Of a stretch of 64,000 bases of DNA, positions 7,101-62,605 are shown piece by piece. Numbering within the stretch: position 1 is the stretch's first letter; the number at the start of each line of letters is the position of its first letter. Source of the DNA: Candidatus Parcubacteria bacterium (lineage in GTDB: Bacteria > Patescibacteriota > Patescibacteriia > Patescibacteriales > UBA12075); contig CAWFCE010000001.1 in NCBI GenBank assembly GCA_963814275.1, positions 67,307-131,306 of the forward strand, written 5' to 3'. The translations under genes and the position numbers were made by a program. The notes below the pieces were generated by a model that searched no databases, was not told where the DNA came from, and saw only the letters and a list, made by a program, of their open reading frames with translations.

Positions 7101-10029
7101 CAATGACGCTTATGACGGGACTGTTTATTTCTGGAATAATATCATATACGATGTTGGGGCGGGTATAATCGCCGATACTGGTTCGTCATTCTATGCTTAT
7201 AATAATACTTTTTATAACTGTGATTATGGTTTGAGTTCGGAATGGAAGGCTGGGGTGGGCGGATCCGTTCTGGCTATAAATAATATCGTGCAAAATTGCA
7301 CTGATGGGTTTGATAGTTCATTCAACACTGCTTCCGATTATAATATTTCCGATATTGCCGGCGACCAGCCGGCCAGCGGCGCTCACGACAAGATGGAAAC
7401 TGACGTGATTTTCTTCGATGAATTGAATAAAGATTTTCACATATCCCCGGACGACACCGCCGCTCTCGACGCCGGCACGTCGTCGGTATCGGATATCGTC
7501 ACTACCGACATCGACGGAGCGCCGATCCATACCTACGACATCGGCGCGGACGACGGCAGTCAGTATTTTGTATCTAGTATTAAGTATCAGGGGTTTGATG
7601 CTGAATTCGGCACTTTGGCGACCTGGGAAGACGCTAATGATGTCGATCTGACCGCGACCACCACGCTCGTCTTCGATATCGACGCCACCACCGGTTACAT
7701 CCCGTTCGGCTCATCGCTTTACGGCACGACTTCTTTTGCCGTGGCTTCGACCACGCTCGTGGCTACTTCGTCGAACCAGATACTTCTCTACAATATAGCG
7801 AGTTCCACCTTCCAGTCCGGCGAATGGGTCTGCCTGGAAGGCGCGCCCGCCAACTGCGTACGCCTGGCCAACGCCGGCAACCCGGCCATTGCCGTCGCCA
7901 AGATCGACGGAGCCTGGGCCGGGGCGGATACGAGCGCGGTAACTATAAATGGCTGGACGACTGGGAAATATAACTATATCAAGGTTTATACGACTGATAC
8001 GGCACGGCATCAGGGGAAGTGGGATGATAATAAGTATCGTTTAGTTAACAATGGGATTATATTTAATGAAAGCAATGCTATAGAATTTGACGGCATACAG
8101 TTTTATCGCACCGGAACAACAGGGGGGGGCGGAACTATACTATTTAACTATCTTTCAAGTGCTAATATTACTTTTTCAAATAATATTGTTAAAAGAGATT
8201 CATATTATGATTGTTTGAAAGTTTTTGGTAAGTCAACTAGCGTTTATAAAATTTATAATAATATTTTATACGATTGTGGCGGATCAGGAATAGTTTTAGA
8301 CAGCGGAGTAGGTGGTGGTGGATATATTTATAATAATACAGTCAGCGATTGTGGAAATGGTTTTTATTTTATCAATGCAAATTTGTTTACAATGAAAAAC
8401 AATATTTCCTATAACAATATAGACAATTACTCCGGCTCTTACAGTAATTTAACTGCCAGCCATAATCTTTCTGGACCGACACAGTCGAATGCTCCTGGGT
8501 CTAGTCCGGTAAATAATGCCACAGTAACTTTCCTGGATTCAGCTAATCAGGACTTCCGTCTAATGCCCGAGGATACGGCTGCGCGCGACGCGGGCACGAA
8601 TTTAAGTGCGGATGTGAACCTGCATTTCACGGACGACGCGCAGGGGAATGAGCGTTATGACGCCAAATGGGACATCGGCGCGCTCGAAGGGCCGACGATT
8701 ATTTACCGCAGCGTCGGCAACGACACGAGCAACCTGGCCGGAGCCGGCAATACCGTGACGATCACGAAAGTATCAGGCGGCAACGCGACCACGACCGCAG
8801 TTTTCGCCAATGAACTGCCGGATAATGTGGGCGTGGGGGATGTATTGCAATACGGCGGCAGCGGTTATTACCAATTAGCCTTCATCACCGCCCGCGCCTC
8901 CTCCACCCAGTACGAAGTCCAGGCACGCGACGGCACCCTGCCGGATGCCACCACCTCGGCCCCGGTCAGTATCTTTCGGGCGCACGAATTCCTGGATGAC
9001 TGGGAGGATCAACTTGAAGTTGATGTGAACGACGGGATTGACGGCAGTGTTGACGAGCTAGTTCTGTATCCCAAAGCGAGCCTTGATTTAACAGCTTCCA
9101 ATACCGCCATGTTCGTACCCTGCTACGCTTCGACAAGTCCTGACAATTTAGCAGTTAATATAGACGGATGGACGACTGCCACAACCAGCTATATAAAAAT
9201 ATATACACCGAAAGATACTAATGAAGTAGGCATAAGCCAACGCCATAATGGTTTATCGGGTAGCGGTTATGTTCTAAAAAATAGTTATGATCAGCAGATA
9301 CTAATAAATGATTCAAATGTTAAGTTGGTTGGGATTGAAAGCGATTGTAGTGATTCAACAACTGGAAGCTACTGTGTTCATATATGGGCAAATACTGGCC
9401 AGTCAAATACTAATTTAACAATCGATTCATGTTTATTGGATAATAGACGTAATGACACGACATTGGGATCGGGCATTAGGTTAAATAATGCTGGTACGAG
9501 TTCAACTTTTTATCTAACCAATAATATTATTATGACTGATAATCAAATAGGGATTTACTTAAGATTTGACGAAGGTGGTTCAAACGCTAGCATATATATT
9601 TATAACAACACAATATCGTCATCGACAACAGGCATCTCGTCCTATCCTGATGCATATGTAGTTGTTAAAAATAACGTAATTTTCAACACTTCCGATGATT
9701 TTTCTAGCTCTTTTGATATTCTCGACCACAACGCCTCCGACGACCTGGACGGGGACAATCCGATCGATATCAGTCCGGGGGCGAGTGAGGCGGACGGCTG
9801 GGCGGCGGCTTTCGTCGATTATGCCAATGGGGATTTCCGGATCAAGAGCATTTATTCGCCGCTCTATGACGCCGGTACGCCGATCACGCTCATAACCGAT
9901 GACATCGTGGGAACGGCCCGCCCGCAGAACAATGCTTATGACGTCGGCGCTTTCGAGTTCACCGGCGCGCCGAAATTCAAGATAAAGGGCGGGACGATCA
10001 AGATGCAGGGACACTTGGAATTTAAGTAA
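1141..10029 (+). CDS. Giant repetitive right-handed beta-helix surface protein or adhesin. The track ORF is 1273..10029 (2918 aa); the frame is open from 1099 and homology starts at 1141.
   Basis: A long ORF with repeated modules. Recurrent signatures are IDGWTT..YI(K/R)(I/V)YT..ARH.G.W, NNI/YNN rungs typical of parallel beta-helices, and D.DG..R..DIGADE caps of the kind seen at the ends of beta-helix surface proteins. Confidence 0.85.
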   Translation, partial: NTSSPDSAFHDKTVTFLDAANNDFHLSSSDTAARDSGTSTAYSLLPTAYDIDGTARGGAPDIGADEVPVEYVSTICENTSAGGSCSEMDYSDLSDWEDAVEADIVSSATRIFSGTGTGELSENDSVSLYWGGATDSGIAGTVVATTSDQIMVDWITGTTSPVIAHASDTWRKDASNYWTISGTGDDLGASPIAVAKIDGTWNASDTALVTIDGWTTSRDAYIKVYSTDTARHDGTWSYDKYRNSAGMNNYEQFVRTSGLQMTYLYSDQHGGFVVYSDNLFQNIDSSSAKVISAVTTDAPSGAATIDTYTIFINNTIYNDLNPTGYSRLIVLSGRTKNHVYFYNTDCINKDDGSNNGGDVNCFYYSHTNTDVHYWNTIAYVPDGADINNGSASGDYNVTTGDGLPGNNTATNTSPAFAEIDNNDFHLSSSDTVARDQGIDLSDNQFLAYTADIDGDTRPFNGTWDIGADEYALYTIYRSVGPGSTGALLCATSTNNLNISGSTATFDGGTLDKIGVGDAIVYNASSSIAFISGRNNSNFSYSVQNATGVTPDTVTDDTGWCIFRAYTSLANAESGTTNTNIPVSFDTWSDGRDLVSNKEQWNIACYADASDGTTVDIEGWTTGISNHLRIFTPNSSSEVGTSQRHNGVWSANGYRLEVDGDTLDVYDDYVWIDGLQIDTAPNSSGTNRMGILLSNNETGGAKISNNIIRSSNYGGSANYGIYVGGNTSGAVTYIYNNILVSHKTYGMYINDYGDREIITNNTVYNCNVGFSVNSGPGQPEAYNNIAASCDSVCYENLSTLSGNNISSDDTAPGSNSIVNATVKFFDELNGDYHLSPDDTAALDAGTSSVSDIVTTDIDGDPIHTYDIGADDGSQYFVSSIKYQGVDAEFGTLATWEDANDVDLTATTTLVFDIDTTTGYIPFGASVYGTSSFAEASVTVVATTSNQILLYNIASSTFQDGEWVCVDGAPANCVRLSDAGNPAIAVARIDGAWAGADTSAVDIDGWTTGKYNYIKIYTTVTARHQGKWDDNKYRIMKSNTTIITSEEEFVQIDGLQVGFIADTGSGNYFAIWGTADGSGEFSISNNIVRGVENTGGGYQIGIVPAYISGQTISRVWNNIIYDCTGPNAEGIEQDDTDSTTYFYNNTVYNCNIGIFYHNGGSFIAKNNIAYNNTANYGSTPGSESAYNMTSQTPSSAIAWGVAADNGTTDSAAAGKLIQSGQDFLTTVKTGMVIKNTSDNTYTYVTAVDSDIQLSVNDDIMLSGKVYVIYTNMYGLPDFVDIANNDPHLAQFDTVAKNKGINLYSDPYLALNTDIDGTARGGATDIGADEVPVEFVSTICETPGSGGDCGNMDYSHLGGTGNWEDKVESDLTAAATRVFSGTGTGELDEDDTVELYWGGATDSGIDATVVATTVAGQILVDGVTGTTSPVVAHSSDTWRKDASNYWTISGTGDDLGASPIAIAKIDGTWNATDTVYLRINGWGADYDNYVKIYTTDMARHNGAADYDAYRIWYDYSDAQNYVSISISNAGNYYIEGLQIYPSDNSISLSGGINLANGCTVYVYNNLFFGGPKSNGQRGMFSIYDLSAKESNIYNNIISGLTLCILGGDYVYNNTLYDCSDTGILSGATIAINNIVASTTDPFDGTFTDGTTNNSTDAADSPGIGTNYQNQTFSFVDAANGDFHLTKDDTGAKDKGVDLSSTSTLSFSDDIDGDARPAFNAWDIGADEYALYTIYRSVGPGSTGALLCATSTNNLNISGSSATFDGGTLDNIGVGDAIVYNASSSIAFISGRSSNFAYSVQDAAGVTPDAVTDDTGWCIFRAYTSLQNAVDDALGGTENTGIPAAVRDFDTWTGGQDLVANKEQWNVACYADAADTVGSGGVDINGWTTSETNYIKVYTPVSASEVGVSQRHSGKWDTNGYRLEATGYPNHLDIYDDYVKIDGLQVSMTPTNSNPYRVIYIRQDSVKVWISNSIIKGIGDASYSVNYGVFANDAYDGTVYFWNNIIYDVGAGIIADTGSSFYAYNNTFYNCDYGLSSEWKAGVGGSVLAINNIVQNCTDGFDSSFNTASDYNISDIAGDQPASGAHDKMETDVIFFDELNKDFHISPDDTAALDAGTSSVSDIVTTDIDGAPIHTYDIGADDGSQYFVSSIKYQGFDAEFGTLATWEDANDVDLTATTTLVFDIDATTGYIPFGSSLYGTTSFAVASTTLVATSSNQILLYNIASSTFQSGEWVCLEGAPANCVRLANAGNPAIAVAKIDGAWAGADTSAVTINGWTTGKYNYIKVYTTDTARHQGKWDDNKYRLVNNGIIFNESNAIEFDGIQFYRTGTTGGGGTILFNYLSSANITFSNNIVKRDSYYDCLKVFGKSTSVYKIYNNILYDCGGSGIVLDSGVGGGGYIYNNTVSDCGNGFYFINANLFTMKNNISYNNIDNYSGSYSNLTASHNLSGPTQSNAPGSSPVNNATVTFLDSANQDFRLMPEDTAARDAGTNLSADVNLHFTDDAQGNERYDAKWDIGALEGPTIIYRSVGNDTSNLAGAGNTVTITKVSGGNATTTAVFANELPDNVGVGDVLQYGGSGYYQLAFITARASSTQYEVQARDGTLPDATTSAPVSIFRAHEFLDDWEDQLEVDVNDGIDGSVDELVLYPKASLDLTASNTAMFVPCYASTSPDNLAVNIDGWTTATTSYIKIYTPKDTNEVGISQRHNGLSGSGYVLKNSYDQQILINDSNVKLVGIESDCSDSTTGSYCVHIWANTGQSNTNLTIDSCLLDNRRNDTTLGSGIRLNNAGTSSTFYLTNNIIMTDNQIGIYLRFDEGGSNASIYIYNNTISSSTTGISSYPDAYVVVKNNVIFNTSDDFSSSFDILDHNASDDLDGDNPIDISPGASEADGWAAAFVDYANGDFRIKSIYSPLYDAGTPITLITDDIVGTARPQNNAYDVGAFEFTGAPKFKIKGGTIKMQGHLEFK

Positions 10030-40020: not shown

Positions 40021-43000
40021 ATGAAAAGATTTCCCTATAAAATAGTAATATTTTTATTCGTCTTGACTCTTCTATCGGCAGGGTTTGCCGTCCTGCCGGT
40101 CCATGCTGCCGACCTGGGCTTGAACTATGCCGCCAATTTCGGTTTGCAGACGACCGGCACGACCGATGTCCGCGACCTGATCGTCAGTATCGTCCGGTAT
40201 TTCATCGGTTTTTTGGGCATTATCGCGGTCATTATCATCCTGTACGGCGGGTTTCTCTGGATGACTTCCGCCGGCAATGTCCAGAAAGTGGAAAAGGCCA
40301 AAAAAACATTGATTGCCGGAGTGATCGGATTGATCATAATTATGGCGGCTTTTGCCATCGTGACTTTTATCATCAACTTCGTTAACGATTCGCTCGAATC
40401 CACCTGCACCGCCGACTGTCCGGGCGGCAAATGCTGCCAGGGCGGACCGGATTACTGCTGTGATACGAGCCAGACATGCTGCAATAGCGCCGGTCCACAG
40501 TGCTGTGATGCCGGCCAGTATTGCTGCGCTACCGGTTGTTCGGCCACGCCTTGCGGCGGTATCGGTCCGGGAGAGCCGTTCCGGATCAATTCGACCAAGC
40601 CGCAAGACGCCAGCGCCAACGTCATTCAAAATGCCCGGATCCGCTTCGATTTCAATTATCGGGTCGATAGCGCGACGGTTGATGATGTTACTTTTGCCGT
40701 TAGCGGCAGCACCGGACCGATCGCCGGCATCACTACGGTAGATAGCAGCCGCATAATATTTACGCCCGCGGCCGGTTTATGCCCGGCCAATACCTGCGGG
40801 GCGGTAAATTGTTTTGCCGCCGGGGACACTGTGACAGTGGCAGCGCAGGAGATCAGGAGCTTAAGCGGCGATGAACTCGCCCAGATGATTAATCCTTTCA
40901 CCGGCTTGCCGGAAGGCTGCGGAACAGCGGCCAGTCCCTGCACCGTCACTTTCACGGTCGGGGATACCGTCGATTGCCAGGACCCGCAGGTCGGCCTCAG
41001 TTTCGACCAGGTATGCGTCGGTACCGACAATCCGCTTGACGCCTGGGCAAGCGACGACAGTTTGGTGACCAATATCGAATTATCTATCGACGGCACAATA
41101 GAAAGTGATGAGGTGAACAGCGCCAGCGACAATCCCTTTTTTGCCACTTTCCATTGGGACGGTGGCGGTTTTAGCGCCGGTGACAGCGTTACCTTCCGAG
41201 CCACCGCTTACGACCTGGACGACCACAGCAAGAGCGCTACGATCAGCCGGACCATGAGGCCGGCGCATTGCTGCGACGGACTTTTGAATATGGACGAAAC
41301 CGGCACCGATTGCGGCGGCAGCTGCGGCGCTTGCGATGGAGCGGCCTGCGGCGTGAACCTGGCGGATGATTGCGCGATTACGACAGGAGTGGATTGCAGC
41401 CTGAATAATAACCGTTGTTCATCTGATTTTTGTAGCTGTACTTCGGCCGGTACCGACTGCCAGGATGCCGGATACGACGGCGGAGTGGACGATTGCTGCC
41501 TCTGCCAGCGTCCGCCGGAAATTGACCGGATCACGCCGATGGGCGGATTTTGCCGGCAGGATGACGATTCGCCAACCAATAATCCCTGCCGCGAGGACGG
41601 CGATTGTTCCACCGGTTACTGTGATACCGATACCGCCAACGGCGCGGCCAACAATTTGATCACGATTGCCGGCCGCGGTTTCGGCACGGTTCCGGGCGCG
41701 GTGGAGATCGACGGGGAAAATGCGAGCTATTCTATTCCCGGCTGCGGCGTGACTTGGAATGACAAAGAGATCGTCGCGCAGATACCGGGTACGATCAGCT
41801 CCCCCCTCTTGAGCAATTTACTTATCCGGGTAACCGCGGATGACGGATACGAAGATACGACCGGCGCGGACGGCCGTGGTCCGGAACTTGATTTCATATA
41901 CAATTCGATAGAGCGGCCGGGATTGTGCTCTACTACTCCCGACCGCGGGCCGTTCAATACGCCGGTTAGCTACCAGGGGCTTAACATGGCCGGCGGCACC
42001 GCCTTTTTCGGCAGTTTTTCTTCGAATGTTACGGCGCTTAACTCGGTATTCGGCGGTACGAACGGTACCGCCAATGTGCCTAATATAAAAGAGGGCCAGA
42101 CTACGACATTTCTCGGCCGCGGACTGCTTAACAGTAATTTTCTCAGGTTTACGAAAACAGCTGAGCCGGTACTCGGCCCGGCCATTACCAACTTTGACCC
42201 TTCTGACGGCGCGCCGGGAACATATGTGACGATCTACGGCAACGGTTTCGGTCCGAACCGGACCGCCAGCCGCCATGTATATTTCGGGCCCGTGGGCGTG
42301 AATGAGGCCAGTTATGAATTCCCCGATGTCTGCGCCGGCGAGCTTTGGCGCGATACCCGGGTGATCGTCAAAGTGCCGGATGGACTGGTCGCGGGAAATT
42401 ATATCATAACCATGGATTTGGCCGGAACCGTGGTCGATAGCGGGGGAGACACTTTTACCGTCAACGACGTGATTCGTCCCAATCTCTGCCTGATCAAGCC
42501 GACCGTCGGTACGGTCGGTGATACGATATCGCTCTGGGGCGAGGATTTCGGCCCGGAATCGAGCGGTTCGGTATTATTTTATTCCGGTGTTAGCCAGGAT
42601 ATATTTTCTACATGGGAAAACGCGGCTGTTCCCAACAATATCATTACCACCATTCCCGATGACGCGATTACCGGACCGGTACGGGCCGTTCGTAGCGGTA
42701 ACGAAGGAAACAGCATCGATATCATTGTCGGCGAGTGCACCGGCGCGCCCGATCCGGACGCGGCTTGCGGCAGCCAGTTCTGCTGTCCGGCCGGCACATT
42801 CCGGGAAGGCCGCTGCGTCGATGATCCGGCCGATCCGGCAGACGGCTGCGATATCGGCCTGGGGTCATCGGTCTATGAATGGGAATTCAATACCAGCCTG
42901 GGTCTGGGCGGCGTCGGCGATCCCTGCCGTGATGCCTCTACTCCCAGTTGTCCGGATAATCCCGAATGTATGGACGGTTTGTTCTGTGATGCCGGCACTT

Positions 43001-46000
43001 GCCGCTGCCAGTTGTCCTGCGATTCCATTCCTTTGAATGGCCCGGGCGTATGTGATTGGTCGGATGATATGTGCTCTTCATTGGGGCCGGATTGGCAATG
43101 CAACCATGATACTTGTTTTTGCGAGGAGAACGTCGCCAATGACAGCTGCCGGGCGCGTTCGCTTCGAATCGGCAGCTGCGAGCCGTATCAGTGCCCCAAT
43201 ACCGCCGGTTTTTGCAGTCCGGACGCGCCTGAGACAGTCGATACCGGCATTGCCTGCGATTTTGACTGTAGCGGAGTTCCGGGCTGTGGCACGGGCTGCA
43301 GCAATACGGATGACCGTTGCGAGATCGATGGGTCCATTTGCTCGAAAACAGTTCAGGATTATTTCGGCAATGACGTAGTCGCCCGCTGCGAGCTTGTCGA
43401 TTCGACGGGCGAATACCGCTGGCATATCCGCACTAGCGCTTCTTGTCCCGATAGCGCATGGGAACGGACCACCAACAACCGCTGCGTCGAGGTCGGAAGC
43501 GGGGGCATATGCGAAATTTGTCCGGCCGGTTTCGGTTGTCAGGACCCGGACAAGGATGGACAAGGAAGCTGTGTTACATATAACGATCTTTGCGCCGGCG
43601 ACAGTGAATGCATTTCCGGCGATACCTGCGAATATGACGATCCGGGCGGCTGCGAATGCTGCTGCCGGATCGATTTTAGCGCCCAGGATTGCTGCCAGCC
43701 TCTGACCTGCGAAGGCAGCTGTGGTGAAGGCAGCGCCGATACCAACGGCGACGGCAGTCCGGAAGCGCTTGGCTATTGCAGCGGCTGCGCCTCCGCCGCC
43801 GACCCGACCGCGGCCTGTAATTGTGAAGGGCATACCGGACAATATTGCGACACAAGTACCAATCCGAACGGGATCTGTCTCGATTGCGCCGGCTTGTCGG
43901 CCGATCAGTGCCTTGGTCAGGACGGTTGCTGCCTTGATGCCAAACACGGCAATGTCTGCCACGGCGGCGAAAGCATCAGCGGCGGAGCGGACGATGGTTA
44001 TTGCGCTTACTTCAATTGCGATTCCGTAAATCCTTTGATCTGTGCAAGTACCGCTCCAGTGAGCGACGGAGCCTATGCAGATGTGGCCACTTGCGATACT
44101 CGCTGCCCGATAGATAATTCACCGACTACTATCGGCGCTGCCTGTATCCAGCCCAGCCTCGAAGCCTGCCATACCGGCGTCCCTGCCTGCACCAACGGCC
44201 TGGGGTGCGTTTCCAATACGGCAAATGCCGATTGCCGCTGCTGCTGCGACCCTTTTGACGCGGCCAGCTGCAATGCATTCAATCCGGCTAACCCGAATTT
44301 GGTCTGCCAGCCGGATAAATCCCCCTGTAGCGGAGACAATCGCGGCTTATGTTGCGGTTGCGGTGAAGATAATGACTGTGCGATTGACCCGCAGGATATC
44401 GGCTGCGGCACCGATACTTGCTGCCGCGCCCGGCCAAGCGTTACGGGCAATTATCCGGCGGACGGAGACGATAATGTCTGCCGCAATACGCCGATCGAAG
44501 CGGTTTTCAACCAGCCGATGGATATCGGCAGTCTGGATGGTAACGTGATAATCGTCGGCGAGTATGACGTGCCCTGCCCGGAAGGGACGGTTTATCTGGC
44601 CGTTTCCGGACGCGAGCCGGTGAGCTGGAGCCTTATGGGTCGATATTGGAATAAGTTTAAAACCGCCTGGCAGGGATTATGGGACCGCATCTCTCTGCGC
44701 GATTCCGCTTACGCCTATACCAGCCCCGGTACAGGCCATAATTATTGTGCAATATCGGTAAAAGTAAACGCCAGCAACTTGCCTGACGGCACCAGCCGGC
44801 TGGAAATATCGCCGAGCCGGCTGCTTGACGGGGATAAGCTGTATTATGCCATTGTCGGCGGTGATAAAAACCTGGACAGCCGTACAGGCGTAACAAGCCA
44901 ATGGGGAATCGGGCTTAATGCCGATTTGAGCGGACCGTACACGAGTCCGTCAGGCGGCAATAACGAATTCAACGGAATCGATTATACCCATGCCTATGTC
45001 TGGTCATTCCGTACCCTGGGCGACCAGGACCAGAATCAGGGCGTCTGTGAGATCGACCATGTGGGGATAACCCCCGTTTCCTATCTTTTTCAGACTAATA
45101 AGGACGATCCAGCGGAAAACGATAACGACATATACGATAAAAGTTTCGATACGGTCCGGGACGACGATAGGGTTTTTATCGCAACCGCCTATAATGCGAA
45201 TAATCAAAAAATAATCCCGGTTGACGGATATAAATGGGATTGGGATTGGTCGACCGATAATGCCAATATTGCGGTAATTTCCCACGAACCGACTGCCTAC
45301 ACCGCTGCTGGCGACCGGCAATTGGTCAAAGCCGCTACCTCCAGCGTGGAAGGCAATACCTATGTCAAAGCTGATATCAGTTTGACGGAAACCGGCTATT
45401 CATCGGCGGGCGACGGCAAAACCGGCGCGGCCCGGGTTTATGTCTTTATCTGTGCCAATCCCTGGCCCCCGGTAGACGGCGATGTCTGGAGCCCTTGGAT
45501 AGATGAAGGGAGCAATTGCTCGCCGGGACTTATGTTCAGTGGTTGCAGCGATACTCATTTTGAACTGTACTATTGCCGTGATAACGGCAAATACGGTACA
45601 TACGACGATTTGCCCGCAATCGTGAGCGGCGAAGACCAGATTATCCGCGGCAGGAATGGCGATATTTTGAAAGAGCTCTTCTTTCCGCGGGCGGCAGTGC
45701 CGAATTCGACCACGGAATTAACGGTGGTTAATACCGGGCAAGGCGGCAGCGCATCGACCACCTGGGCGGATATCACCAGCGACGCCAATATTGCCGGCTA
45801 TAAGCTGTATTGGGGAACTTCGTCCGGCACATATAATGATTATGCCACCATTAGAAATAACGGGACAACAAACAATGACAGCGTACTGTGCGTGAATGGT
45901 GAGCCGTCATTCAGCTGCCGGGTATCGGGACTGACCGATGGACGGACGTATTATTTTAATATGACAGCTTTTTACTCCGATCAGTCGGAAAGCGATTATT

Positions 46001-46596
46001 TCGGCGAGAAAACCGTCGAGAATATTTCCGATACGGCGGCGCCGGGCCAGCCTACGCTATATCCGGCGGTGGCGGGCGATAAGAAAGTGGATTTAACATG
46101 GTCAGCCGTTCCCGGGGCGGATAGCTATATCGTAATGTACGGCGTTCAAGACGGCGGACCTTACGGCTATACCGAAAATATCGGCAATTATACCGAGGTT
46201 AGCGTGACCGGCGCCGGTTTGGCCAATGGCAATGATTATTTTTTCCGGGTCAAAGCGGTTGACGGCGAAGGCAACGAAAGTACGCAGTCGAATCAGGTAA
46301 TTGGGATTCCCTTTGCCGCCCCCTACCAATTGAAAACATTCATTGTCGCCTCCACCACCGTATCCTTGGAATGGCAATTGGCCGCAGAGGGGGTAGGGCA
46401 GACCAGGATTAGCTGGGGTACGACACCGGCAGCCGACGCGAACAGTCAAACGCTGCCCGGCGTACAGCAAAACTATACTATTAGCAGCCTAACACCAAAT
46501 ACGCGTTATTATATCAAAGTCCAATCGTTAAATAGCGCTTCCGTTCCTAATATAAGTGAAGCCGCCGAGGTGCAGGCCGTTACTCTAACTAATTGA
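40021..46596 (+). CDS. Giant surface protein: a VirB2/TrbC-like pilin-type N-terminal domain, then Cys-rich linkers, Ig-like and IPT/TIG domains, a ~570-aa Cys-rich region and C-terminal Fn3 domains
   Basis: 2191 aa. The N-terminus is paralogous to the 880-aa neighbour (FLWMTSAGNVQKVEKAKKTLIAGVIGLIIIMAAFAIVTFI). The IPT-like segments are ITIAGRGFG and YVTIYGNGFG. The Fn3-like segments are KVDLTWSAVPGADSYIVMYG...YFFRVKAVDGEGNES and YKLYWGTSSGTYND. Confidence 0.75.
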   Translation: MKRFPYKIVIFLFVLTLLSAGFAVLPVHAADLGLNYAANFGLQTTGTTDVRDLIVSIVRYFIGFLGIIAVIIILYGGFLWMTSAGNVQKVEKAKKTLIAGVIGLIIIMAAFAIVTFIINFVNDSLESTCTADCPGGKCCQGGPDYCCDTSQTCCNSAGPQCCDAGQYCCATGCSATPCGGIGPGEPFRINSTKPQDASANVIQNARIRFDFNYRVDSATVDDVTFAVSGSTGPIAGITTVDSSRIIFTPAAGLCPANTCGAVNCFAAGDTVTVAAQEIRSLSGDELAQMINPFTGLPEGCGTAASPCTVTFTVGDTVDCQDPQVGLSFDQVCVGTDNPLDAWASDDSLVTNIELSIDGTIESDEVNSASDNPFFATFHWDGGGFSAGDSVTFRATAYDLDDHSKSATISRTMRPAHCCDGLLNMDETGTDCGGSCGACDGAACGVNLADDCAITTGVDCSLNNNRCSSDFCSCTSAGTDCQDAGYDGGVDDCCLCQRPPEIDRITPMGGFCRQDDDSPTNNPCREDGDCSTGYCDTDTANGAANNLITIAGRGFGTVPGAVEIDGENASYSIPGCGVTWNDKEIVAQIPGTISSPLLSNLLIRVTADDGYEDTTGADGRGPELDFIYNSIERPGLCSTTPDRGPFNTPVSYQGLNMAGGTAFFGSFSSNVTALNSVFGGTNGTANVPNIKEGQTTTFLGRGLLNSNFLRFTKTAEPVLGPAITNFDPSDGAPGTYVTIYGNGFGPNRTASRHVYFGPVGVNEASYEFPDVCAGELWRDTRVIVKVPDGLVAGNYIITMDLAGTVVDSGGDTFTVNDVIRPNLCLIKPTVGTVGDTISLWGEDFGPESSGSVLFYSGVSQDIFSTWENAAVPNNIITTIPDDAITGPVRAVRSGNEGNSIDIIVGECTGAPDPDAACGSQFCCPAGTFREGRCVDDPADPADGCDIGLGSSVYEWEFNTSLGLGGVGDPCRDASTPSCPDNPECMDGLFCDAGTCRCQLSCDSIPLNGPGVCDWSDDMCSSLGPDWQCNHDTCFCEENVANDSCRARSLRIGSCEPYQCPNTAGFCSPDAPETVDTGIACDFDCSGVPGCGTGCSNTDDRCEIDGSICSKTVQDYFGNDVVARCELVDSTGEYRWHIRTSASCPDSAWERTTNNRCVEVGSGGICEICPAGFGCQDPDKDGQGSCVTYNDLCAGDSECISGDTCEYDDPGGCECCCRIDFSAQDCCQPLTCEGSCGEGSADTNGDGSPEALGYCSGCASAADPTAACNCEGHTGQYCDTSTNPNGICLDCAGLSADQCLGQDGCCLDAKHGNVCHGGESISGGADDGYCAYFNCDSVNPLICASTAPVSDGAYADVATCDTRCPIDNSPTTIGAACIQPSLEACHTGVPACTNGLGCVSNTANADCRCCCDPFDAASCNAFNPANPNLVCQPDKSPCSGDNRGLCCGCGEDNDCAIDPQDIGCGTDTCCRARPSVTGNYPADGDDNVCRNTPIEAVFNQPMDIGSLDGNVIIVGEYDVPCPEGTVYLAVSGREPVSWSLMGRYWNKFKTAWQGLWDRISLRDSAYAYTSPGTGHNYCAISVKVNASNLPDGTSRLEISPSRLLDGDKLYYAIVGGDKNLDSRTGVTSQWGIGLNADLSGPYTSPSGGNNEFNGIDYTHAYVWSFRTLGDQDQNQGVCEIDHVGITPVSYLFQTNKDDPAENDNDIYDKSFDTVRDDDRVFIATAYNANNQKIIPVDGYKWDWDWSTDNANIAVISHEPTAYTAAGDRQLVKAATSSVEGNTYVKADISLTETGYSSAGDGKTGAARVYVFICANPWPPVDGDVWSPWIDEGSNCSPGLMFSGCSDTHFELYYCRDNGKYGTYDDLPAIVSGEDQIIRGRNGDILKELFFPRAAVPNSTTELTVVNTGQGGSASTTWADITSDANIAGYKLYWGTSSGTYNDYATIRNNGTTNNDSVLCVNGEPSFSCRVSGLTDGRTYYFNMTAFYSDQSESDYFGEKTVENISDTAAPGQPTLYPAVAGDKKVDLTWSAVPGADSYIVMYGVQDGGPYGYTENIGNYTEVSVTGAGLANGNDYFFRVKAVDGEGNESTQSNQVIGIPFAAPYQLKTFIVASTTVSLEWQLAAEGVGQTRISWGTTPAADANSQTLPGVQQNYTISSLTPNTRYYIKVQSLNSASVPNISEAAEVQAVTLTN

Positions 46597-56044: not shown

Positions 56045-57643
56045 ATGCAATATTCTTATCGTCCGGTGGTATTGGTGGTGCTAGACGGTTGGGGCGAATG
56101 GGAGACCAAGATGGGCAATCCGATGTCCTGCGCCAAAATGCCAACCATCGATCAATTGAACCAATATTATCCCAAGCTTTTATTGGAAGCCTCAGGTCTG
56201 GCGGTCGGTTTGCCTTGGGGCGTATTCGGTAATTCCGAAGTCGGCCACCAAACCCTGGGTTCAGGCCAGATAATTTACCACTACTTGCCGACTATCACGG
56301 CCGCCATCCAGAGCCGGCGTTTTTTCAATAATGAAATATTACTTAAGGTTTTTGCCAAGGCGAAAAAAAGAGGTTCAAAATTGCACATTATGGGCCTTTT
56401 AAGCGACGGGGGAGTACATTCTCATATCGACCACGCAGTCGCTTTGCTGCAAATGGCGAAAGAACAGGGTATTAACGAAATATATGTCCATGCCATTACC
56501 GACGGCCGCGATACCCCGCCTCAATCGAGTTTGCGGTATATTCCATATCTGTTAGAGCAATTCAAGAAGATCGGTATCGGCCGACTGGCCACGATCGTCG
56601 GCCGTTATTATACCATGGACCGCAATCGTAACTGGGACCGGGTAGAAAGGGGTTTTCTGGCCATGGTGGACGGCGACGGCGAGCAGACTAGCGACCCCAT
56701 CAAAGCAATCATGCGCCAGCATGGTGAAAATAAAACCGACGAATATCTGGAACCGATCGTGATGGTCGATGAGAACAATGGTCCGGCCGGTTTGGTGGGA
56801 GAAAACGATGTCATAATCAATTTTAATTTCCGGGCCGACCGGGCGCGGCAAATATCATACGCTTTTGCCGACCCTGGTTTCGATAATTTTAAGCATGCCA
56901 AAGTTCCGCCGCATATATACTATGTCGGCTTTTCCGAATATTCCGAGGATTTGAAAATACCGGCCATTTTTCCGGCGCAAAAAATCACCTCCCGGATCGG
57001 GGATATTCTGGCCAAGCACCACAAGAAGCAATTGCGCATCGCCGAAACGGAAAAATACGCCCACGTCACTTATTTTTTTAATGGCGGTATGCCTGATCCC
57101 TTTCCCGGGGAAGACCGTATTTTTGTCCCTTCCAAGAACGCCCCTTCCTATGCGACGGTTCCGGAGATGAGCGCGGCAGAAATAAACGCCAAGCTGATCG
57201 CAGCCATAAAAAGCAACAAATATGATTTTATTCTGGTAAATTACGCCAATACCGATATGGTAGGCCATACGGGGGATTTTCGGGCGGGAATCAAAGCCCT
57301 GGAAGTCGTGGACGGTTGTCTGAAAGAGCTGGTCGAGACCACTCTGTCAATGAACGGTTGCCTGTTGATTACCGCTGATCATGGCAATATCGAAGAAATG
57401 ATCAATCTGGAAACCGGCCAGATCGACACACAGCATTCTACCAACCCGGTTCCTTTTTGGTATGTTTCCCCGGACAGCAAAACAAAAGACCCCCACAAAG
57501 AGGGCCTAATGGAAATACATGGCATGATCGCAGACGTGTCGGCAACGATTTTGACGCTGTTTAACCTGAAAAAACCGGAACAGATGATCGGAAACTGCCT
57601 ATTTGACCGTTTGTATCCCAAGAAAAAAGACAGCGATAAATAG
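56045..57643 (+). CDS. gpmI: 2,3-bisphosphoglycerate-independent phosphoglycerate mutase
   Basis: 532 aa. It has VVLVVLDGWGE, GNSEVGHQTLGSG, DGRDTPP, NYANTDMVGHTG and ITADHGN. Confidence 0.95.
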   Translation: MQYSYRPVVLVVLDGWGEWETKMGNPMSCAKMPTIDQLNQYYPKLLLEASGLAVGLPWGVFGNSEVGHQTLGSGQIIYHYLPTITAAIQSRRFFNNEILLKVFAKAKKRGSKLHIMGLLSDGGVHSHIDHAVALLQMAKEQGINEIYVHAITDGRDTPPQSSLRYIPYLLEQFKKIGIGRLATIVGRYYTMDRNRNWDRVERGFLAMVDGDGEQTSDPIKAIMRQHGENKTDEYLEPIVMVDENNGPAGLVGENDVIINFNFRADRARQISYAFADPGFDNFKHAKVPPHIYYVGFSEYSEDLKIPAIFPAQKITSRIGDILAKHHKKQLRIAETEKYAHVTYFFNGGMPDPFPGEDRIFVPSKNAPSYATVPEMSAAEINAKLIAAIKSNKYDFILVNYANTDMVGHTGDFRAGIKALEVVDGCLKELVETTLSMNGCLLITADHGNIEEMINLETGQIDTQHSTNPVPFWYVSPDSKTKDPHKEGLMEIHGMIADVSATILTLFNLKKPEQMIGNCLFDRLYPKKKDSDK

Positions 57644-57645
57644 CT

Positions 57646-57831
57646 CTATTCTTCAACAAAAATCGCTTCCACCGGACATTCATCAGCTGCCCGGACGGCA
57701 CATTTGCCGTTATCGGTATCGGTGGTAAAAACCTCCGATTTGCCGTTGGCGTTTAAACGGAATATATTCGGACATATTTCCGTGCAGCGCCCGCAACCGA
57801 TGCATTTATTTTGGTCAACCGTTATTTTCAT
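57646..57831 (-). CDS. Small [4Fe-4S] ferredoxin
   Basis: 61 aa with CIGCGRCTEICP and ...ECPVEAI. Confidence 0.85.
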   Translation of the reverse strand: MKITVDQNKCIGCGRCTEICPNIFRLNANGKSEVFTTDTDNGKCAVRAADECPVEAIFVEE

Positions 57832-58008
57832 ATAATTTCTAATAAAAATTATAACACATAAAATAATAATTGTTAACAGTTTTAATTTATAAAAAAGTTA
57901 TCCACTTTTTGTAACTTTTCCACAGTAAATACGGGCTTGTTTTTTTTCTCTTACGTGATATGCTGAGTAAGTAAAACAGCTGTCCTAAAATTAGGCCAAT
58001 AAGCAGGC

Positions 58009-58063
58009 TTGACTTATCCATATATTGTGGTATAATGGATATAGTGGATACAAGATATAGTGT
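58009..58063 (+). promoter_or_regulatory. Strong sigma70-type promoter overlapped by three NrdR-box-like half-site repeats, upstream of nrdR-nrdD-nrdG
   Basis: TTGACT (58009-58014), a 16-nt spacer ending in TGg, then TATAAT (58031-58036). ATAT(T/A)GTG(G/T) occurs at 58022, 58039 and 58055. ATACAAGATATAGTGT (58048-58063) matches the NrdR-box consensus ACAC.ATATAT.GTGT at 13 of 16 positions. Confidence 0.5.
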
Positions 58064-58330
58064 TTGGAGGAAATTTCGATTAAACACCATTTTTGCCCCT
58101 TATACCCCTTATAAGCGAGCGACTGGAAAGCGGTGTTTTTTTATTGCCTTTAAAAGATGCCGATTTTCCGGGCAGTTACGGGCAGAACCTTGATCGTGCT
58201 GGGGCAGTCCATAGTATGATCGAAGTTTTATGGGTACCGGCCCGGCTTTAATAAGCGGCAAAACAGTTTATAAATAATGTAAATAGAAATTGAAGGAACA
58301 GCCTAGCAAATTCACCGAATATTTCATCAT

Positions 58331-58801
58331 ATGAAGTGCCCCGCCTGCCATTATCAAGATACCAAGGTCGTCGATTCCCGGGTAGCCAGTGACGGATTAT
58401 CGATACGCCGCCGCCGCGAATGTTTAAAATGCGGATTTCGCTTTTCCACATATGAAGAAATGGAAATCCTCGACCTGTCGATAATGAAGCGGGACGGGCG
58501 CAAAGAAGTATATAGCCGGGACAAAATGGTGCGGGGACTGAAAAAATCACTGGAAAAGCGACCGGTTACCGACGATAAGTTCAAAAAACTGGTCAATTCA
58601 ATCGAAAGAGATATCCAGGTAATGCGGAAAAATGAGATTACCAGCATGGAGATCGGACAGGTTATTATGAAGCATCTTAAGAAAACCGACCAGATCGCTT
58701 TTATCCGTTTTGCCAGCGTTTACCAACAGTTCAAAGACGTACAAACCTTTCAGAGGGAACTTAACAAGCTTTTAAAAAATAAAAAAGGAAAGACGAAATA
58801 A
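58331..58801 (+). CDS. nrdR: Transcriptional repressor NrdR
   Basis: 156 aa. It starts MKCPACHYQDTKVVDSR...RRRECLKCGFRFSTYE (zinc ribbon) and continues into an ATP-cone. Confidence 0.95.
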   Translation: MKCPACHYQDTKVVDSRVASDGLSIRRRRECLKCGFRFSTYEEMEILDLSIMKRDGRKEVYSRDKMVRGLKKSLEKRPVTDDKFKKLVNSIERDIQVMRKNEITSMEIGQVIMKHLKKTDQIAFIRFASVYQQFKDVQTFQRELNKLLKNKKGKTK

Positions 58802-58823
58802 GCGGTCTTTCCCATATCATCCC

Positions 58824-60962
58824 ATGCCGCCTACTATCACCCAAATAAGAAAACGTAACGGCGAAATCGTCGATTTTGACACAAAGAATATCGCCAAAGC
58901 CATTTATAAAGCCACAGAGGGGGTCGGTCAGCCGGACCAGTATTTAGCCGAAAAATATACCGAGGAAGTCGTCGGTAAAATCAACGAAAAATTCCATTCC
59001 CGTTCGATCCCGGCGGTCGAAGAGATCCAGGATATCGTGGAGGAAGTTTTGATAGCGAACCGCCAAATTAAAACCGCCAAGGCCTATATCCTTTATCGCG
59101 ATCAGCGCGCGCGCCTGAGGGAGATGCGGTTGATGGTCAATTCGGTCGATATAATGGAAGATTACCTTAAGCAATCCGATTGGCGGGTAAAAGAGAACTC
59201 TAATATGAGCTTCTCGCTCCAGGGGCTTAATAACCATCTGGCTTCGATCATATCTTCCAATTATTGGCTCAACAAAGTATATACGGCCAATATCCGCGAA
59301 GCCCACCAAAGCGGCGAGATCCATATTCACGACCTGCAAATGCTGGCCGCATATTGCGCCGGCTGGGACTTGAAAGACCTTTTACTCAGGGGTTTCGGCG
59401 GCGTGTCGGGAAAAATCGAATCCAAACCGCCCAAGCATTTCCGCACCGCCCTGGGCCAAATTATAAATTTTTTCTATACCCTTCAGGGCGAAGTGGCGGG
59501 AGCGGAGGCTTTTTCCAGCTTTGATACCTATTTGGCGCCGTTTATCCGCTATGACAATCTGAGCTATGAAGAAGTCAGGCAGAGCATGCAGGAATTCCTT
59601 TTTAATATCAATGTACCGACGCGGGTCGGGTTTCAGACCCCGTTTACCAATATTACGCTAGATATCGTTACGACCGGAACCTTGGCAGAGGACCACGTAA
59701 TAATCGGGGGCCAGCCGCAACAGGAAAAGTACAAGGATTTTCAGCCGGAAATGGACATGCTCAACCTGGCCTTCGCCGAATGCATGATGTCGGGCGATGC
59801 TAAAGGACGGGTGTTCACATTTCCCATCCCCACTTACAACATCACCAAGGAGTTCGACTGGGATAGTCCGGTAGCGTCAAAGATTTTTGAAATGACCGCC
59901 AAATACGGCATCCCGTATTTTTCCAACTTTATTAATTCCGATATGAGCCCGGAAGACGCGCGTTCGATGTGCTGCCGCCTGCGGCTCGATAACCGGGAGC
60001 TTAGGAAACGAGGCGGCGGGCTATTCGGCGCCAATCCGCTGACCGGTTCGATCGGCGTGGTCACGGTAAATTTGCCGCGGGTCGGATATTTGTCGAAGAC
60101 CAAGGAAGAATTTTACGACCGGCTCCTGAGTCTCATGCAGATCGCCCGCGAAAGCCTGGAAACGAAGCGCAAAATACTGGAAGACCTGACCGATGCCGGG
60201 CTTTATCCTTATGCCAAGTATTATCTATCGAATATCAAAGAGCGCTTCGGTGAATATTGGAAGAACCATTTTTCAACTATAGGAATAATCGGCATGAACG
60301 AAGCCTTATTGAACTTCGCACCGGTCGGACAGGATATTACGACCACTGACGGTAAGCGATTTGCCCTCGAGGTGCTGGATTTCATGCGGGAAAAGATGAT
60401 GGATTATCAGAATGATACCAATAACCTGTACAACCTGGAAGCAACCCCGGCCGAAGGAACTACGCGCCGCCTGTCGCGCGCCGACATCGACCGTTACCCG
60501 GATATGATCGTCGCCAATATGGAAGCCTATAAAAGCGGCCAGGCGTCGCCGTATTATACCAATTCCAGCCAGCTTCCCGCCAACTTCACCGATGACCTGT
60601 TCGAAGCACTGGATCTGCAGGATGATATCCAGACGAAATATACCGGCGGTACCGTATTGCACGCCTATATCGGCGAGGCTCTGCCATCATCCGAGGCGGT
60701 CAAGAAATTGGTCAAGTCGATATCTTACCGCTACACTCTGCCGTACTTTACGATCACTCCGACATTTTCGATCTGCCCCAAGCACGGCTATTTGTCCGGT
60801 GAGCACCGCTATTGTCCGAAATGCGACGAAGAGCTTGGCTATCAGGAAGAAGGCGAAATGAGCGGCGACCGCGAAAGTCTGGAAACGGTGCAAGTCAGGC
60901 ACATGGCCAGCGAGAAGGATATCGCCGACCTGGAGCGGGACTTGATCCAATCGATCGCGTAG
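58824..60962 (+). CDS. nrdD: Anaerobic ribonucleoside-triphosphate reductase (class III) large polypeptide; it lacks the glycyl-radical tail
   Basis: 712 aa with an N-terminal ATP-cone, a catalytic core (for example SMCCRLRLD) and the zinc ribbon FSICPKHGYLSGEHRYCPKC. After CPKCDEE the sequence diverges and stops without the R(V/I).GY motif. Confidence 0.9.
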   Translation: MPPTITQIRKRNGEIVDFDTKNIAKAIYKATEGVGQPDQYLAEKYTEEVVGKINEKFHSRSIPAVEEIQDIVEEVLIANRQIKTAKAYILYRDQRARLREMRLMVNSVDIMEDYLKQSDWRVKENSNMSFSLQGLNNHLASIISSNYWLNKVYTANIREAHQSGEIHIHDLQMLAAYCAGWDLKDLLLRGFGGVSGKIESKPPKHFRTALGQIINFFYTLQGEVAGAEAFSSFDTYLAPFIRYDNLSYEEVRQSMQEFLFNINVPTRVGFQTPFTNITLDIVTTGTLAEDHVIIGGQPQQEKYKDFQPEMDMLNLAFAECMMSGDAKGRVFTFPIPTYNITKEFDWDSPVASKIFEMTAKYGIPYFSNFINSDMSPEDARSMCCRLRLDNRELRKRGGGLFGANPLTGSIGVVTVNLPRVGYLSKTKEEFYDRLLSLMQIARESLETKRKILEDLTDAGLYPYAKYYLSNIKERFGEYWKNHFSTIGIIGMNEALLNFAPVGQDITTTDGKRFALEVLDFMREKMMDYQNDTNNLYNLEATPAEGTTRRLSRADIDRYPDMIVANMEAYKSGQASPYYTNSSQLPANFTDDLFEALDLQDDIQTKYTGGTVLHAYIGEALPSSEAVKKLVKSISYRYTLPYFTITPTFSICPKHGYLSGEHRYCPKCDEELGYQEEGEMSGDRESLETVQVRHMASEKDIADLERDLIQSIA

Positions 60963-61178
60963 ACACCCGAATTTACAGGTTTATTTACAAATCTACAAAT
61001 TATAAATTGTAATATTAGGTTCAATAGAATATTTGTAATTCGTATATTTGTAGCCGATTTGTACATTTGCGTATACCGTGTACAATGATATTAATAATCG
61101 AATAATATATAAAATAATCCTTAGTTTATACCTTGCCCCCATGCTTGTCGGTAAGAAACATAAACTAACACAAAAATT

Positions 61179-61328
61179 ATGAGTCCGATCAAAACAAAAC
61201 GCCAGGAGTGCGAAGTGTACAGCCGGGTTACCGGTTATCTGCGGCCGGTAAAACAATGGAATGACGCCAAAACGGCCGAACATGACCACAGGATAAAATT
61301 TAAAGTTGATAATTGCCGCTGTTCGTAA
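61179..61328 (+). CDS. 49-codon ORF encoding the NrdD C-terminal glycyl-radical motif; it is too short to be listed in the ORF track
   Basis: It encodes MSPIKTKRQECEVYSRVTGYLRPVKQWNDAKTAEHDHRIKFKVDNCRCS. EVYSRVTGYLRPV..WN matches the class III RNR glycyl-radical signature, with the Gly codon at 61233-61235. It is in the same reading frame as nrdD. Confidence 0.75.
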   Translation: MSPIKTKRQECEVYSRVTGYLRPVKQWNDAKTAEHDHRIKFKVDNCRCS

Positions 61329-61349
61329 AACCGGCAAAAACCCAGGAGT

Positions 61350-62102
61350 ATGATAATCGGCGGTTTGCAAAAATTCAGCTTGCTTGACTATCCGGAACAC
61401 ATTGCCGCCATCATCTTTACCCAGGGCTGCAATTTCCGCTGTCAGTTTTGTTATAACCCTATGCTTGTCTGGCCGAACGCAACTGGCCAGCCAGCTTCAA
61501 ATAAGAACAAGCCCGGCGCTGCCGGCGACCAGTACCAAAAAGGCCATCCGACCATTAGCGAGGATGACCTTTTTGATTTTCTCAAATCCCGGCGGGGCCG
61601 CTTGGACGCGGTAGTGATCACCGGCGGAGAACCGACCATCCATTCCGATCTGCCCGAATTCATAACCGCGGTCAAAAAACAGGGCTTTAAGATTAAATTG
61701 GATACGAATGGCACGCATCCGGAAACGCTCAGGCTTCTCATCGGAAAACGGTTGATCGATTATATCGCCATGGATATTAAGGGGCCGGCGGAAAAGTACG
61801 ATCTGATAACCGGTATCCAGCCGGATTTGAACAAGATCAAGGAAAGCGTTAAAATAATAATGGACAGCGGGTTGCCTTATGAATTCCGCACCACGCTGGT
61901 TCCGGAATTGATCCTGCCGGCAGAGGTCAGGCGGGTAGGAAATTTGATCAGGGGGGCGGCTAAGTGGTATCTGCAGGCGTTCAAGACCGATACCGAACTG
62001 ATAAATCCAAGCTTTCAGAATGTCGGAACTTATACCGGCAAACAAATGGAGAAGATGCGCGAAATCGGCAGCGAGTATGTGGAGCATTGTGCCATTAGAT
62101 AA
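61350..62102 (+). CDS. nrdG: Anaerobic ribonucleoside-triphosphate reductase activating protein (radical SAM)
   Basis: 250 aa. It has SLLDYPEHIAAIIFTQGCNFRCQFCYNP (CxxxCxxC) and VVITGGEP. Confidence 0.9.
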   Translation: MIIGGLQKFSLLDYPEHIAAIIFTQGCNFRCQFCYNPMLVWPNATGQPASNKNKPGAAGDQYQKGHPTISEDDLFDFLKSRRGRLDAVVITGGEPTIHSDLPEFITAVKKQGFKIKLDTNGTHPETLRLLIGKRLIDYIAMDIKGPAEKYDLITGIQPDLNKIKESVKIIMDSGLPYEFRTTLVPELILPAEVRRVGNLIRGAAKWYLQAFKTDTELINPSFQNVGTYTGKQMEKMREIGSEYVEHCAIR

Positions 62103-62203
62103 GATTACGAGCCAACAAATTATTTAATAAATATTACGATTACTGTATTTTTGGGCATAGACACTTCTTGTTTCCCGGTTTTAATATAATTTAATATAAA
62201 ATT

Positions 62204-62605
62204 ATGGCGGTTAACCAAAATTTGAACAAAGATAATCAGGACGCGAAAAAGGAAGAAAATTCTCGCGACGGGGACACGGATGCGGTTATAAAAAAGAATC
62301 TGGAAGTCAGCGAAGAAATTTTGAAAATTACGAAAAAGATCCGGTCCTACCTTTTTTGGCAGCGGATCTTCGGCCTGGTCAAGATCTTTATAATAGTTAT
62401 GCCGATAATAATTGCCTGGATATATATCCCGCGGATTTTGGACGATTTAAAGAACAACCCGACTGAATTTTGGGGAAATGCCTGGCTCAACAGTTATATC
62501 AATAATTTCGTCGAAGGCGCGACGAAAAATATCAATACGAATACAGTTGATGTCAACAAAATTTCGCCTGAGTTATTGAACCAAATCAGGCAGCAGCTAA
62601 AATGA
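62204..62605 (+). CDS. Hypothetical membrane protein
   Basis: 133 aa with a charged N-terminus and one hydrophobic segment (IFGLVKIFIIVMPIIIAWIYI). Its stop overlaps the ogt start (ATGA). Confidence 0.5.
   Translation: MAVNQNLNKDNQDAKKEENSRDGDTDAVIKKNLEVSEEILKITKKIRSYLFWQRIFGLVKIFIIVMPIIIAWIYIPRILDDLKNNPTEFWGNAWLNSYINNFVEGATKNINTNTVDVNKISPELLNQIRQQLK

Follow-up and report, generated by a model that had tools for sequence, protein, structure and literature searches.

The 64,000-nt stretch of a Candidatus Parcubacteria genome analyzed here (contig CAWFCE010000001.1; this whole stretch is termed the window, and positions are its coordinates, on the + strand unless stated) encodes a class III (anaerobic) ribonucleotide reductase (RNR) whose catalytic gene, nrdD, is divided between two open reading frames (ORFs). 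Specifically, nrdR, nrdD, a 216-nt gap, a 49-codon ORF, and nrdG follow one another on the + strand across 58331-62102. The first of these, nrdR (58331-58801), encodes a 156-aa repressor of nrd genes composed of a zinc ribbon (Zn_ribbon_NrdR, E 1.4e-21) and an ATP-cone (E 1.8e-17). The nrdD ORF (58824-60962) encodes a large subunit of 712 aa that comprises an ATP-cone (residues 7-96), a catalytic barrel, a zinc ribbon, and an acidic tail, and the finger-loop sequence MCCRL was read directly in this chain. The zinc ribbon (60774-60824) has the form C651-x2-H654...C664-x2-C667 (C651-P-K-H654...C664-P-K-C667). A first-pass annotation of this DNA, which had read nrdD as split, placed Cys codons at 60813 and 60822; these are the codons of C664 and C667, and its remaining coordinates also held. 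Beyond the ribbon, the chain continues for 45 residues unrelated to canonical NrdD, namely the acidic tail D668-A712 (60825-60959), which ends in ERDLIQSIA ahead of a TAG stop at 60960-60962.

The AT-rich intergenic spacer (60963-61178) contains an imperfect hairpin and is followed by the gene for the small subunit (61179-61328), a glycyl-radical peptide of 49 aa and 5.7 kDa (MSPIKTKRQECEVYSRVTGYLRPVKQWNDAKTAEHDHRIKFKVDNCRCS). The glycyl-radical motif (RVxGY) was not found on the large chain and occurs solely in trans, as SRVTG19Y on the 49-aa ORF, where the codon of the radical glycine, Gly19, lies at 61233-61235. Reading in the nrdD frame across 58824-61325 encounters 8 stop codons. Finally, nrdG (61350-62102), which begins 21 nt past the small ORF, encodes a 250-aa radical-SAM activase of the NrdG2 type (Radical_SAM, E 2e-22; TIGR02495 NrdG2, E 3e-59, 199.6 bits against a cut-off of 131).

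Profile comparisons showed how exactly NrdD is partitioned between the two chains. Of the 562 positions of Pfam NRDD (PF13597), the large ORF covered 1-529 (E 5.4e-180) and the small ORF 530-562 (E 5.9e-10), while in NCBIfam NF006126 (684 positions) they matched 2-651 (1052 bits, cut-off 548) and 648-683, respectively; the large ORF also scored 506 bits against TIGR02487. Residues 102-609 of Thermotoga maritima NrdD (4coi) were matched by the large chain and residues 613-645 by the small one. In P0198, the fused relative nearest to the window among those found, the sequence is CPKC-AIEQP-CEVYSRVVGY, and from this linker sequence the break sits in the approximately 5 residues that connect the last zinc ligand to the radical loop. 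The alignment to intact NrdD thereby fixed the position of the break, and the model parts absent from nrdD matched 61179-61328, bearing out the earlier identification of the small ORF as the class III glycyl-radical signature.

Conservation and distribution of the split

Scanning one genome per GTDB species yielded 80 loci that were 65-82% identical, and which were labeled as Falkowbacteria, Parcubacteria, or Patescibacteria, or bore placeholder names. The window and the 77 relatives' loci that extended far enough formed a set of 78 loci. What had been read from the window alone was corroborated by this survey of related genomes, in that the split architecture was present in all 78. The large ORFs stopped 9-54 residues past the ribbon, the spacers between the large and small ORFs measured 11-311 nt (median 80), and an ATG at the homologous codon started the small ORF in 78/78 loci. 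Additionally, nrdG followed the small ORF in every related locus that extended far enough. The frame of the small ORF relative to nrdD was 0, 1, and 2 in 31, 23, and 24 loci, respectively. The shared frame to which the first-pass annotation had drawn attention does exist in the window, but it is a coincidence, because the relatives use all three frames. The zinc ribbon was kept in all 78 loci and in 120/120 of the closest large subunits, and the Gly motif was present in 0/120 of the latter. The split is thus real, conserved, and independently initiated, and the large chain is without any radical site.

Among 121 homologues of the peptide, residues S15, R16, G19, P23, N28, K31, and E34 were invariant. 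Between the small ORFs of L001 and L002, nonsynonymous divergence (dN) was 0.056 and synonymous divergence (dS) 0.62; in other pairs, the proportion of synonymous differences (pS) was saturated at approximately 0.8, with nonsynonymous proportions (pN) of 0.05-0.28. Judged from these substitution patterns, the peptide is under purifying selection. Mean GC content in the related loci was 43% for the small ORF versus 21% for the spacers. The tail of the large chain starts with a conserved DEEIGY and was net negative in 75/78 loci (mean -5.1), and the leader of the peptide, MSPIxTKRQ, is mildly basic.

Two features were noted at the chain ends. In one subclade (L001-L010, L012, L015, L017, L020, L021, L023, L024, and L059), the extreme C-terminus of the otherwise variable tail carries a conserved (E)RD(L/I)Ixx(I/L)A (window 60930-60959), an ending shared by many of the 120 closest large subunits and which may be a docking motif for the peptide or NrdG. 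The window peptide ends with a C-x-C pair, NCRCS (61311-61325), and a terminal cysteine pair (CC, CxC, or CxxC) was present in 19/78 loci, on the peptide in 13, on the large-chain tail in 7, and on both in only 1. In class I and II RNRs, C-terminal cysteine pairs act as redox shuttles, and the ends seen here are reminiscent of them.

Stand-alone peptides of this kind extend well beyond the Patescibacteria. The small-ORF profile, searched against 1.84 billion representative proteins (clusters at 50% identity), had 4897 matches at E ≤ 1e-3 and 2257 clusters at E ≤ 1e-10. Of the best 150 matches, 149 were stand-alone proteins of 48-116 aa, nearly all of which begin with Met. In a second search, with a profile of diverse stand-alone proteins, the best 120 were all small (46-91 aa), and source names included Thermoplasmatota and Diapherotrites archaea. 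The order nrdR-nrdD-peptide-nrdG was also seen in a Thermoplasmatota metagenome-assembled genome (L159) and a 560-kb contig (L161). In the DPANN archaeon L160, the order was nrdD-peptide-nrdG, with no nrdR called within 5 kb. Here, nrdD and the peptide gene overlap as TAATG, preceded by GGAGGTGA (Shine-Dalgarno), which by its sequence is a classic coupled-translation junction. The split large subunits of L159 (1687-4992, 1101 aa) and L161 (1553-4996, 1147 aa), which are of archaeal type, are additionally interrupted within the barrel by an intein that contains a LAGLIDADG endonuclease, and a thioredoxin-reductase-like gene lies downstream in both.

We recognized two types of mini-protein. Type A, the window's kind, has about 45-60 aa and no zinc ribbon of its own, the ribbon being on the large chain. 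Type B has 80-145 aa and a four-Cys zinc ribbon of its own that precedes the radical motif (L084 7120-7419, P0156, P0254, P0259, P0268, and L158 3686-4120). In the outgroup L084, a 99-aa type B gene lies between a fused nrdD and nrdG, and approximately 95 nt of the two radical-domain copies are near-identical in DNA, which could reflect gene conversion or recent re-fusion. The type B protein of L158 belongs to the archaeal virus ANMV-1 (AJP62049.1, 144 aa, annotated "anaerobic ribonucleoside triphosphate reductase"), and in ANMV-1 and L081-L083 it occurs without nrdD nearby. By analogy, type B proteins resemble spare parts of the GrcA kind, in this case for class III RNR.

In a neighbor-joining tree of large subunits (midpoint root), the split Patescibacteria loci formed one clade. 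The fused L084 and L131 fell outside it, and a split phage lineage (L153, L154) was placed far off. Because of the distance of this phage lineage from the Patescibacteria clade, the tree suggests at least two independent nrdD fissions, although the combination of neighbor-joining and a midpoint root makes it indicative only.

In IMG/VR, a scan with the small-ORF alignment gave 67 loci. In 59/67 of these, NrdD-like sequence was absent from the 4-kb flanks, while the rest of the contigs may hold nrdD. Stand-alone peptide loci, with neither nrdD nor nrdG in the retrieved flanks, include L085/L157, L087, L093, L094, L099, L113, and L129. Specifically, the 45-aa copy of L085 (101-kb contig) is 82% identical to the window peptide; its neighbors encode a DnaD-like initiator, DnaB helicase, primase, and a RecA/UvsX-like recombinase, and no NRDD or radical-SAM gene was found within 10 kb of it. 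The L093 peptide gene lies between terminase and portal genes, other copies adjoin a portal or tail lysozyme gene, and one 90-kb phage contig has two different peptide copies (L087, L099). A tblastn search of GenBank phages with the peptide, a short query of low sensitivity, gave 2 matches. Because phage contigs carry the peptide gene without nrdD nearby, action in trans is suggested, and on this sequence context the stand-alone gene may be an unrecognized phage auxiliary gene.

A viral scan with the large subunit, which used very specific patterns, gave 5 loci. Phage contigs with their own split nrdD were L153 (1444-3762) and L154 (1471-3499), on contigs of 261 and 329 kb, and L156 (2939-4805). 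In these three, the tail of the large chain (…YREKLTELENKKKAILEE…) and the leader of the peptide (…IEKIDEQIQQITAKLND…) resemble heptad helices, which may form a coiled-coil clasp joining the two chains.

A probable two-chain reductase and its alternatives

The first-pass annotation had offered three explanations, namely that a palindromic element split a gene that now works as two polypeptides, that an intervening sequence is removed at the RNA level, or that the locus is a pseudogene. From sequence comparison, we consider it highly probable that the locus encodes a functional, ancient two-chain class III RNR; the split in all 78 loci, the peptide's own ATG, and the purifying selection on it uphold the two polypeptides of the first option. 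The palindrome as the agent of the split did not stand. The inverted repeat itself is genuine, with arms at 60986-61007 and 61031-61052 that are 86% complementary and a hairpin of about 60968-61075, the fold of which was weakly better than shuffles (z -1.5). The window spacer aligned with those of its nearest relatives, L001-L003, at its two ends alone, and a central stretch of approximately 100 nt, the inverted repeat included, is peculiar to this genome. The repeat and this stretch would fit a palindromic mobile element that recently split an intact nrdD. However, L001-L003 have the same split with spacers of 48-123 nt and without the approximately 100-nt palindromic insert, and 74 other relatives are split at the same codon without the palindrome, with spacers down to 11 nt. 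The split also occurs in archaea, including the DPANN locus with its TAATG overlap. Because L001-L003 are split without the palindrome, it entered a pre-existing intergenic gap and did not split nrdD, and the recent-insertion scenario appears very improbable. On this comparison, the AT-rich palindrome is an incidental, genome-specific insert and not a conserved part of the system. A decaying pseudogene, in which nrdD has lost the radical domain and left the small ORF behind as a functionless remnant, would be in keeping with a large ORF that lacks the essential glycine and has a tail unrelated to canonical NrdD. Nevertheless, selection on the peptide is strongly purifying, with 7 residues invariant in the 121 homologues; the large subunit scored 1052 bits on NF006126; nrdR and nrdG are intact; and the arrangement has been retained over deep divergence in bacteria, archaea, and viruses, such that decay is very unlikely.

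One fused protein could still arise if an intervening sequence (group I or II intron) were spliced at the RNA level, or through ribosomal bypassing or recoding. The nrdD of T4 has a group I intron (PMC3653736), and the window ORFs happen to be in one frame; however, we regard this route as extremely unlikely. Rfam searches of 60600-61500 at E ≤ 10 and window-wide at the gathering threshold gave no intron, ribozyme, or riboswitch, and three weak matches were judged to be chance. An intron is excluded because spacers of 11-50 nt are too short for one, spacer sequences are unconserved, and Rfam finds nothing; across the loci, the spacers vary over 11-311 nt and all three frames, and in the window 8 in-frame stops intervene. 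Moreover, the ATG kept in 78/78 loci, and the Shine-Dalgarno and TAATG overlap of the DPANN locus, argue against RNA removal and bypassing alike. Stop-codon read-through and frameshifting were likewise considered and excluded by the conserved ATG, the use of all three frames, and spacers of 11-311 nt. The chains might instead be ligated post-translationally through protein trans-splicing by a split intein, a notion we entertained since the small-ORF profile had marginal matches in the PDB (E 0.02-0.04) to the Npu DnaE intein (4lx3, 4qfq, 4kl5, 2keq) and some archaeal large subunits hold a true intein elsewhere in the chain. The match spans 31 profile positions (34 chain residues) with few shared residues (KRxECxVYS…PVxQWxD) and was judged to be chance. 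The tails go down to 9 aa, approximately 10 peptide residues precede the radical motif, and neither window ORF has an intein Pfam match. Since intein halves would not fit and intein domains are absent, trans-splicing is excluded for practical purposes. It is nonetheless curious, for a protein at a split site, that the matched part of the Npu DnaE split intein is its N-fragment. An assembly or sequencing artefact could be suspected of a metagenome-type genome, but it is scarcely credible when the large-subunit sequence is unchanged in two public sources, on a 457,738-bp contig (P0269), and independent assemblies from dozens of studies have the same architecture.

The mechanism that we propose for the two-chain enzyme follows that of fused NrdD, whose Gly loop enters the barrel next to the finger-loop cysteine. 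The large chain would supply the ATP-cone, the zinc ribbon, and the catalytic barrel, which bears the finger-loop cysteines, while the 49-aa peptide, from its own ATG, would supply the glycyl-radical loop (SRVTG19Y) together with the short helix that follows it. The peptide would bind the large chain non-covalently, with Gly19 in the barrel beside the finger-loop cysteine, and docking would perhaps be steered by the acidic tail of the large chain and the mildly basic peptide leader. NrdG would abstract the Gly19 hydrogen, presumably on or near the complex, and the radical would then cycle to the finger-loop cysteine, as it does in the fused enzyme. In glycyl-radical enzymes, O2 cuts the chain at the radical glycine. 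After such cleavage, a 5.7-kDa peptide would be replaced instead of an 80-kDa enzyme, which offers a possible rationale for the split. A glycyl-radical activase, the pyruvate formate-lyase (PFL) activating enzyme PFL-AE, activates a free 7-mer peptide (PMC10665898).

Several points weigh against a functional two-chain enzyme, our case for which is built from sequence comparison. An AlphaFold2 model of a chimera of the large chain and the peptide had a mean predicted local distance difference test score (pLDDT) of 55.6, with the barrel below 50, and a predicted TM-score (pTM) of 0.40, from an alignment of 147 rows, all ≥64% identical, that was too shallow. The glycyl radical of a free peptide is short-lived (PMC10665898), and activation must therefore be coupled to docking. 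A Shine-Dalgarno-like motif precedes 14/78 small ORFs; nrdG fares no better (11/78), and the sparse motifs thus look like a lineage trait. Another RNR may be encoded elsewhere in the genome; none was found among the 9/12 other window ORFs of ≥450 aa that were scanned, a scan of the 64-kb window that left out two giant ORFs and 56045-57643. Finally, as regards the replacement rationale, an obligate split could equally be a neutral fission.

Comparison with known systems

To our knowledge, characterized glycyl-radical enzymes have the radical glycine on the chain of the barrel, with the PFL back-up GrcA/Y06I as the only exception. The Escherichia coli protein GrcA (YfiD) and phage T4's Y06I are, like the window peptide, small separate polypeptides carrying a glycyl-radical loop; they are activated by the cognate radical-SAM activase and complete the active site of the large enzyme in trans, which is what we propose here. 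PFL is repaired in trans by these proteins, of which Y06I is phage-encoded, and such spare parts have been validated for PFL only (PMC8683613). However, GrcA has about 14 kDa and a PFL-type radical domain (Gly_radical, IPR011140), whereas the window peptide has 5.7 kDa and is of the NrdD type; a Gly_radical Pfam match was absent from it, and its sole Pfam match at E ≤ 0.1 was PF13597. Moreover, GrcA backs up a full-length PFL with its own radical domain, whereas the large chain of the window and its close relatives has none, which makes the window peptide the sole radical site. Membership in the GrcA family was rejected, there being no PFL-type homology and no full-length partner with its own radical domain.

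The NrdJa/NrdJb class II RNR of Pseudomonas aeruginosa and Thermus phage phiYS40 likewise has its catalytic subunit spread over two successive ORFs, the detached part being a C-terminal module that contains a zinc finger (PMC9669993; PMC3653736). It belongs to the B12-dependent class and has another breakpoint, whereas here the ribbon stays on the large chain and the radical loop alone is detached. Phage RNR "genes in pieces" that nonetheless yield a working enzyme include T4 nrdD with its group I intron, nrdA of Aeromonas phage Aeh1, and nrdD of phiAS4 (PMC3653736). Those are recent, lineage-specific introns, inteins, and homing endonucleases, while here the two ORFs can be as little as 11 nt apart or even overlap, different phyla share the split, and neither a mobile element nor a structured self-splicing RNA such as a T4-type group I intron was found between the ORFs (Rfam, E ≤ 10). 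The split system shares its domain content and order with fused NrdD (T4 1h79, T. maritima 4coi/4u3e, NF006126), as it does the zinc ribbon, radical motif, and nrdG partner, but the large chain gains DEEIGY and the acidic tail, and the peptide gains the MSPIxTKRQ leader. The literature that we searched, which left most subscription journals outside, contained no account of a detached NrdD radical peptide.

By analogy with GrcA, a replaceable spare part is a plausible role for the peptide, and the phage-borne stand-alone copies lend this idea indirect support. What was found are stand-alone genes with a conserved Gly; their action in trans is suggested by necessity and by the phage-only copies. 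Going further, we tentatively raise the possibility, which we think doubtful though worth stating, that the peptide is a diffusible, consumable radical cartridge that would be charged by NrdG, docked, destroyed by O2 at Gly19, and replaced, with phages bringing the cartridge gene alone and type B proteins being true spare parts. If this were true, the most fragile part of the enzyme would be a cheap, separately supplied cofactor, and phages with the cartridge gene and without nrdD or nrdG would boost or take over host deoxynucleoside triphosphate synthesis. The mini-proteins of ANMV-1 and L084 would in that case be GrcA-like spare parts for class III RNR, extending repair beyond PFL.

An essential enzyme, then, has its only radical site on a peptide of approximately 50 residues in a large clade of bacteria as well as in some archaea and phages. 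This provides a natural minimal substrate for studying target recognition by NrdG and the entry and exit of the glycyl loop from the barrel, and it makes the published question of spare-part repair beyond PFL directly testable (PMC8683613). Annotation pipelines miss the small ORF or name both halves "anaerobic ribonucleoside-triphosphate reductase", which can mislead metabolic reconstructions of Patescibacteria and DPANN and hide a possible new class of phage auxiliary genes.

Promoters and neighboring features

The first-pass annotation had also proposed a weak promoter ahead of the small ORF (TTGTAC-16-TACAAT), which we discount, as it matches 8/12 consensus positions and falls under the scan threshold. 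Promoter-like sites in the region occurred at chance frequency (11 found versus 7.6 ± 2.6 expected). The best sigma-70-like site in 58000-62400, TTGACT-16-TATAAT with TG (58009-58036, 11/12 consensus), lies upstream of nrdR, and no + strand terminator-like site was found between nrdR and nrdG. Because the sole strong promoter precedes nrdR and no such terminator intervenes, the site at 58009-58036 likely drives the whole nrdR-nrdD-peptide-nrdG unit as a co-transcribed set.

Just 3′ of the -10 hexamer lies a palindrome that resembles an NrdR box (58048-58063, ATACAAGATATAGTGT), with 2 mismatches to ACACWATATATWGTGT, which we take to be the NrdR-box consensus. A search of the window with this consensus gave 2 matches versus 0.43 expected and none in the nrdD-peptide spacer. 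The position of the palindrome suggests that the nrdR-nrdD-peptide-nrdG unit is autoregulated. A degenerate NrdR half-site was noted near 58018-58030, and the promoter overlaps or abuts the palindrome.

Approximately 180 nt upstream of the nrdR promoter, a divergent ORF (57646-57831, - strand) encodes a 61-aa 4Fe-4S ferredoxin-like protein (…CIGCGRCTEICP…) that could donate the electrons for reduction of the NrdG cluster. NrdG itself has an apparent insertion of approximately 35 residues at about residues 40-75 (WPNATGQPASNKNKPGAAGDQYQKGHPTISEDD), which falls outside the TIGR02495 model, such that the model matches in two stretches; this insertion might bear on how a free peptide is handled as a substrate. 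Finally, two giant ORFs share the 64-kb window, at 1273-10029 (2918 aa) and 40021-46596 (2191 aa).

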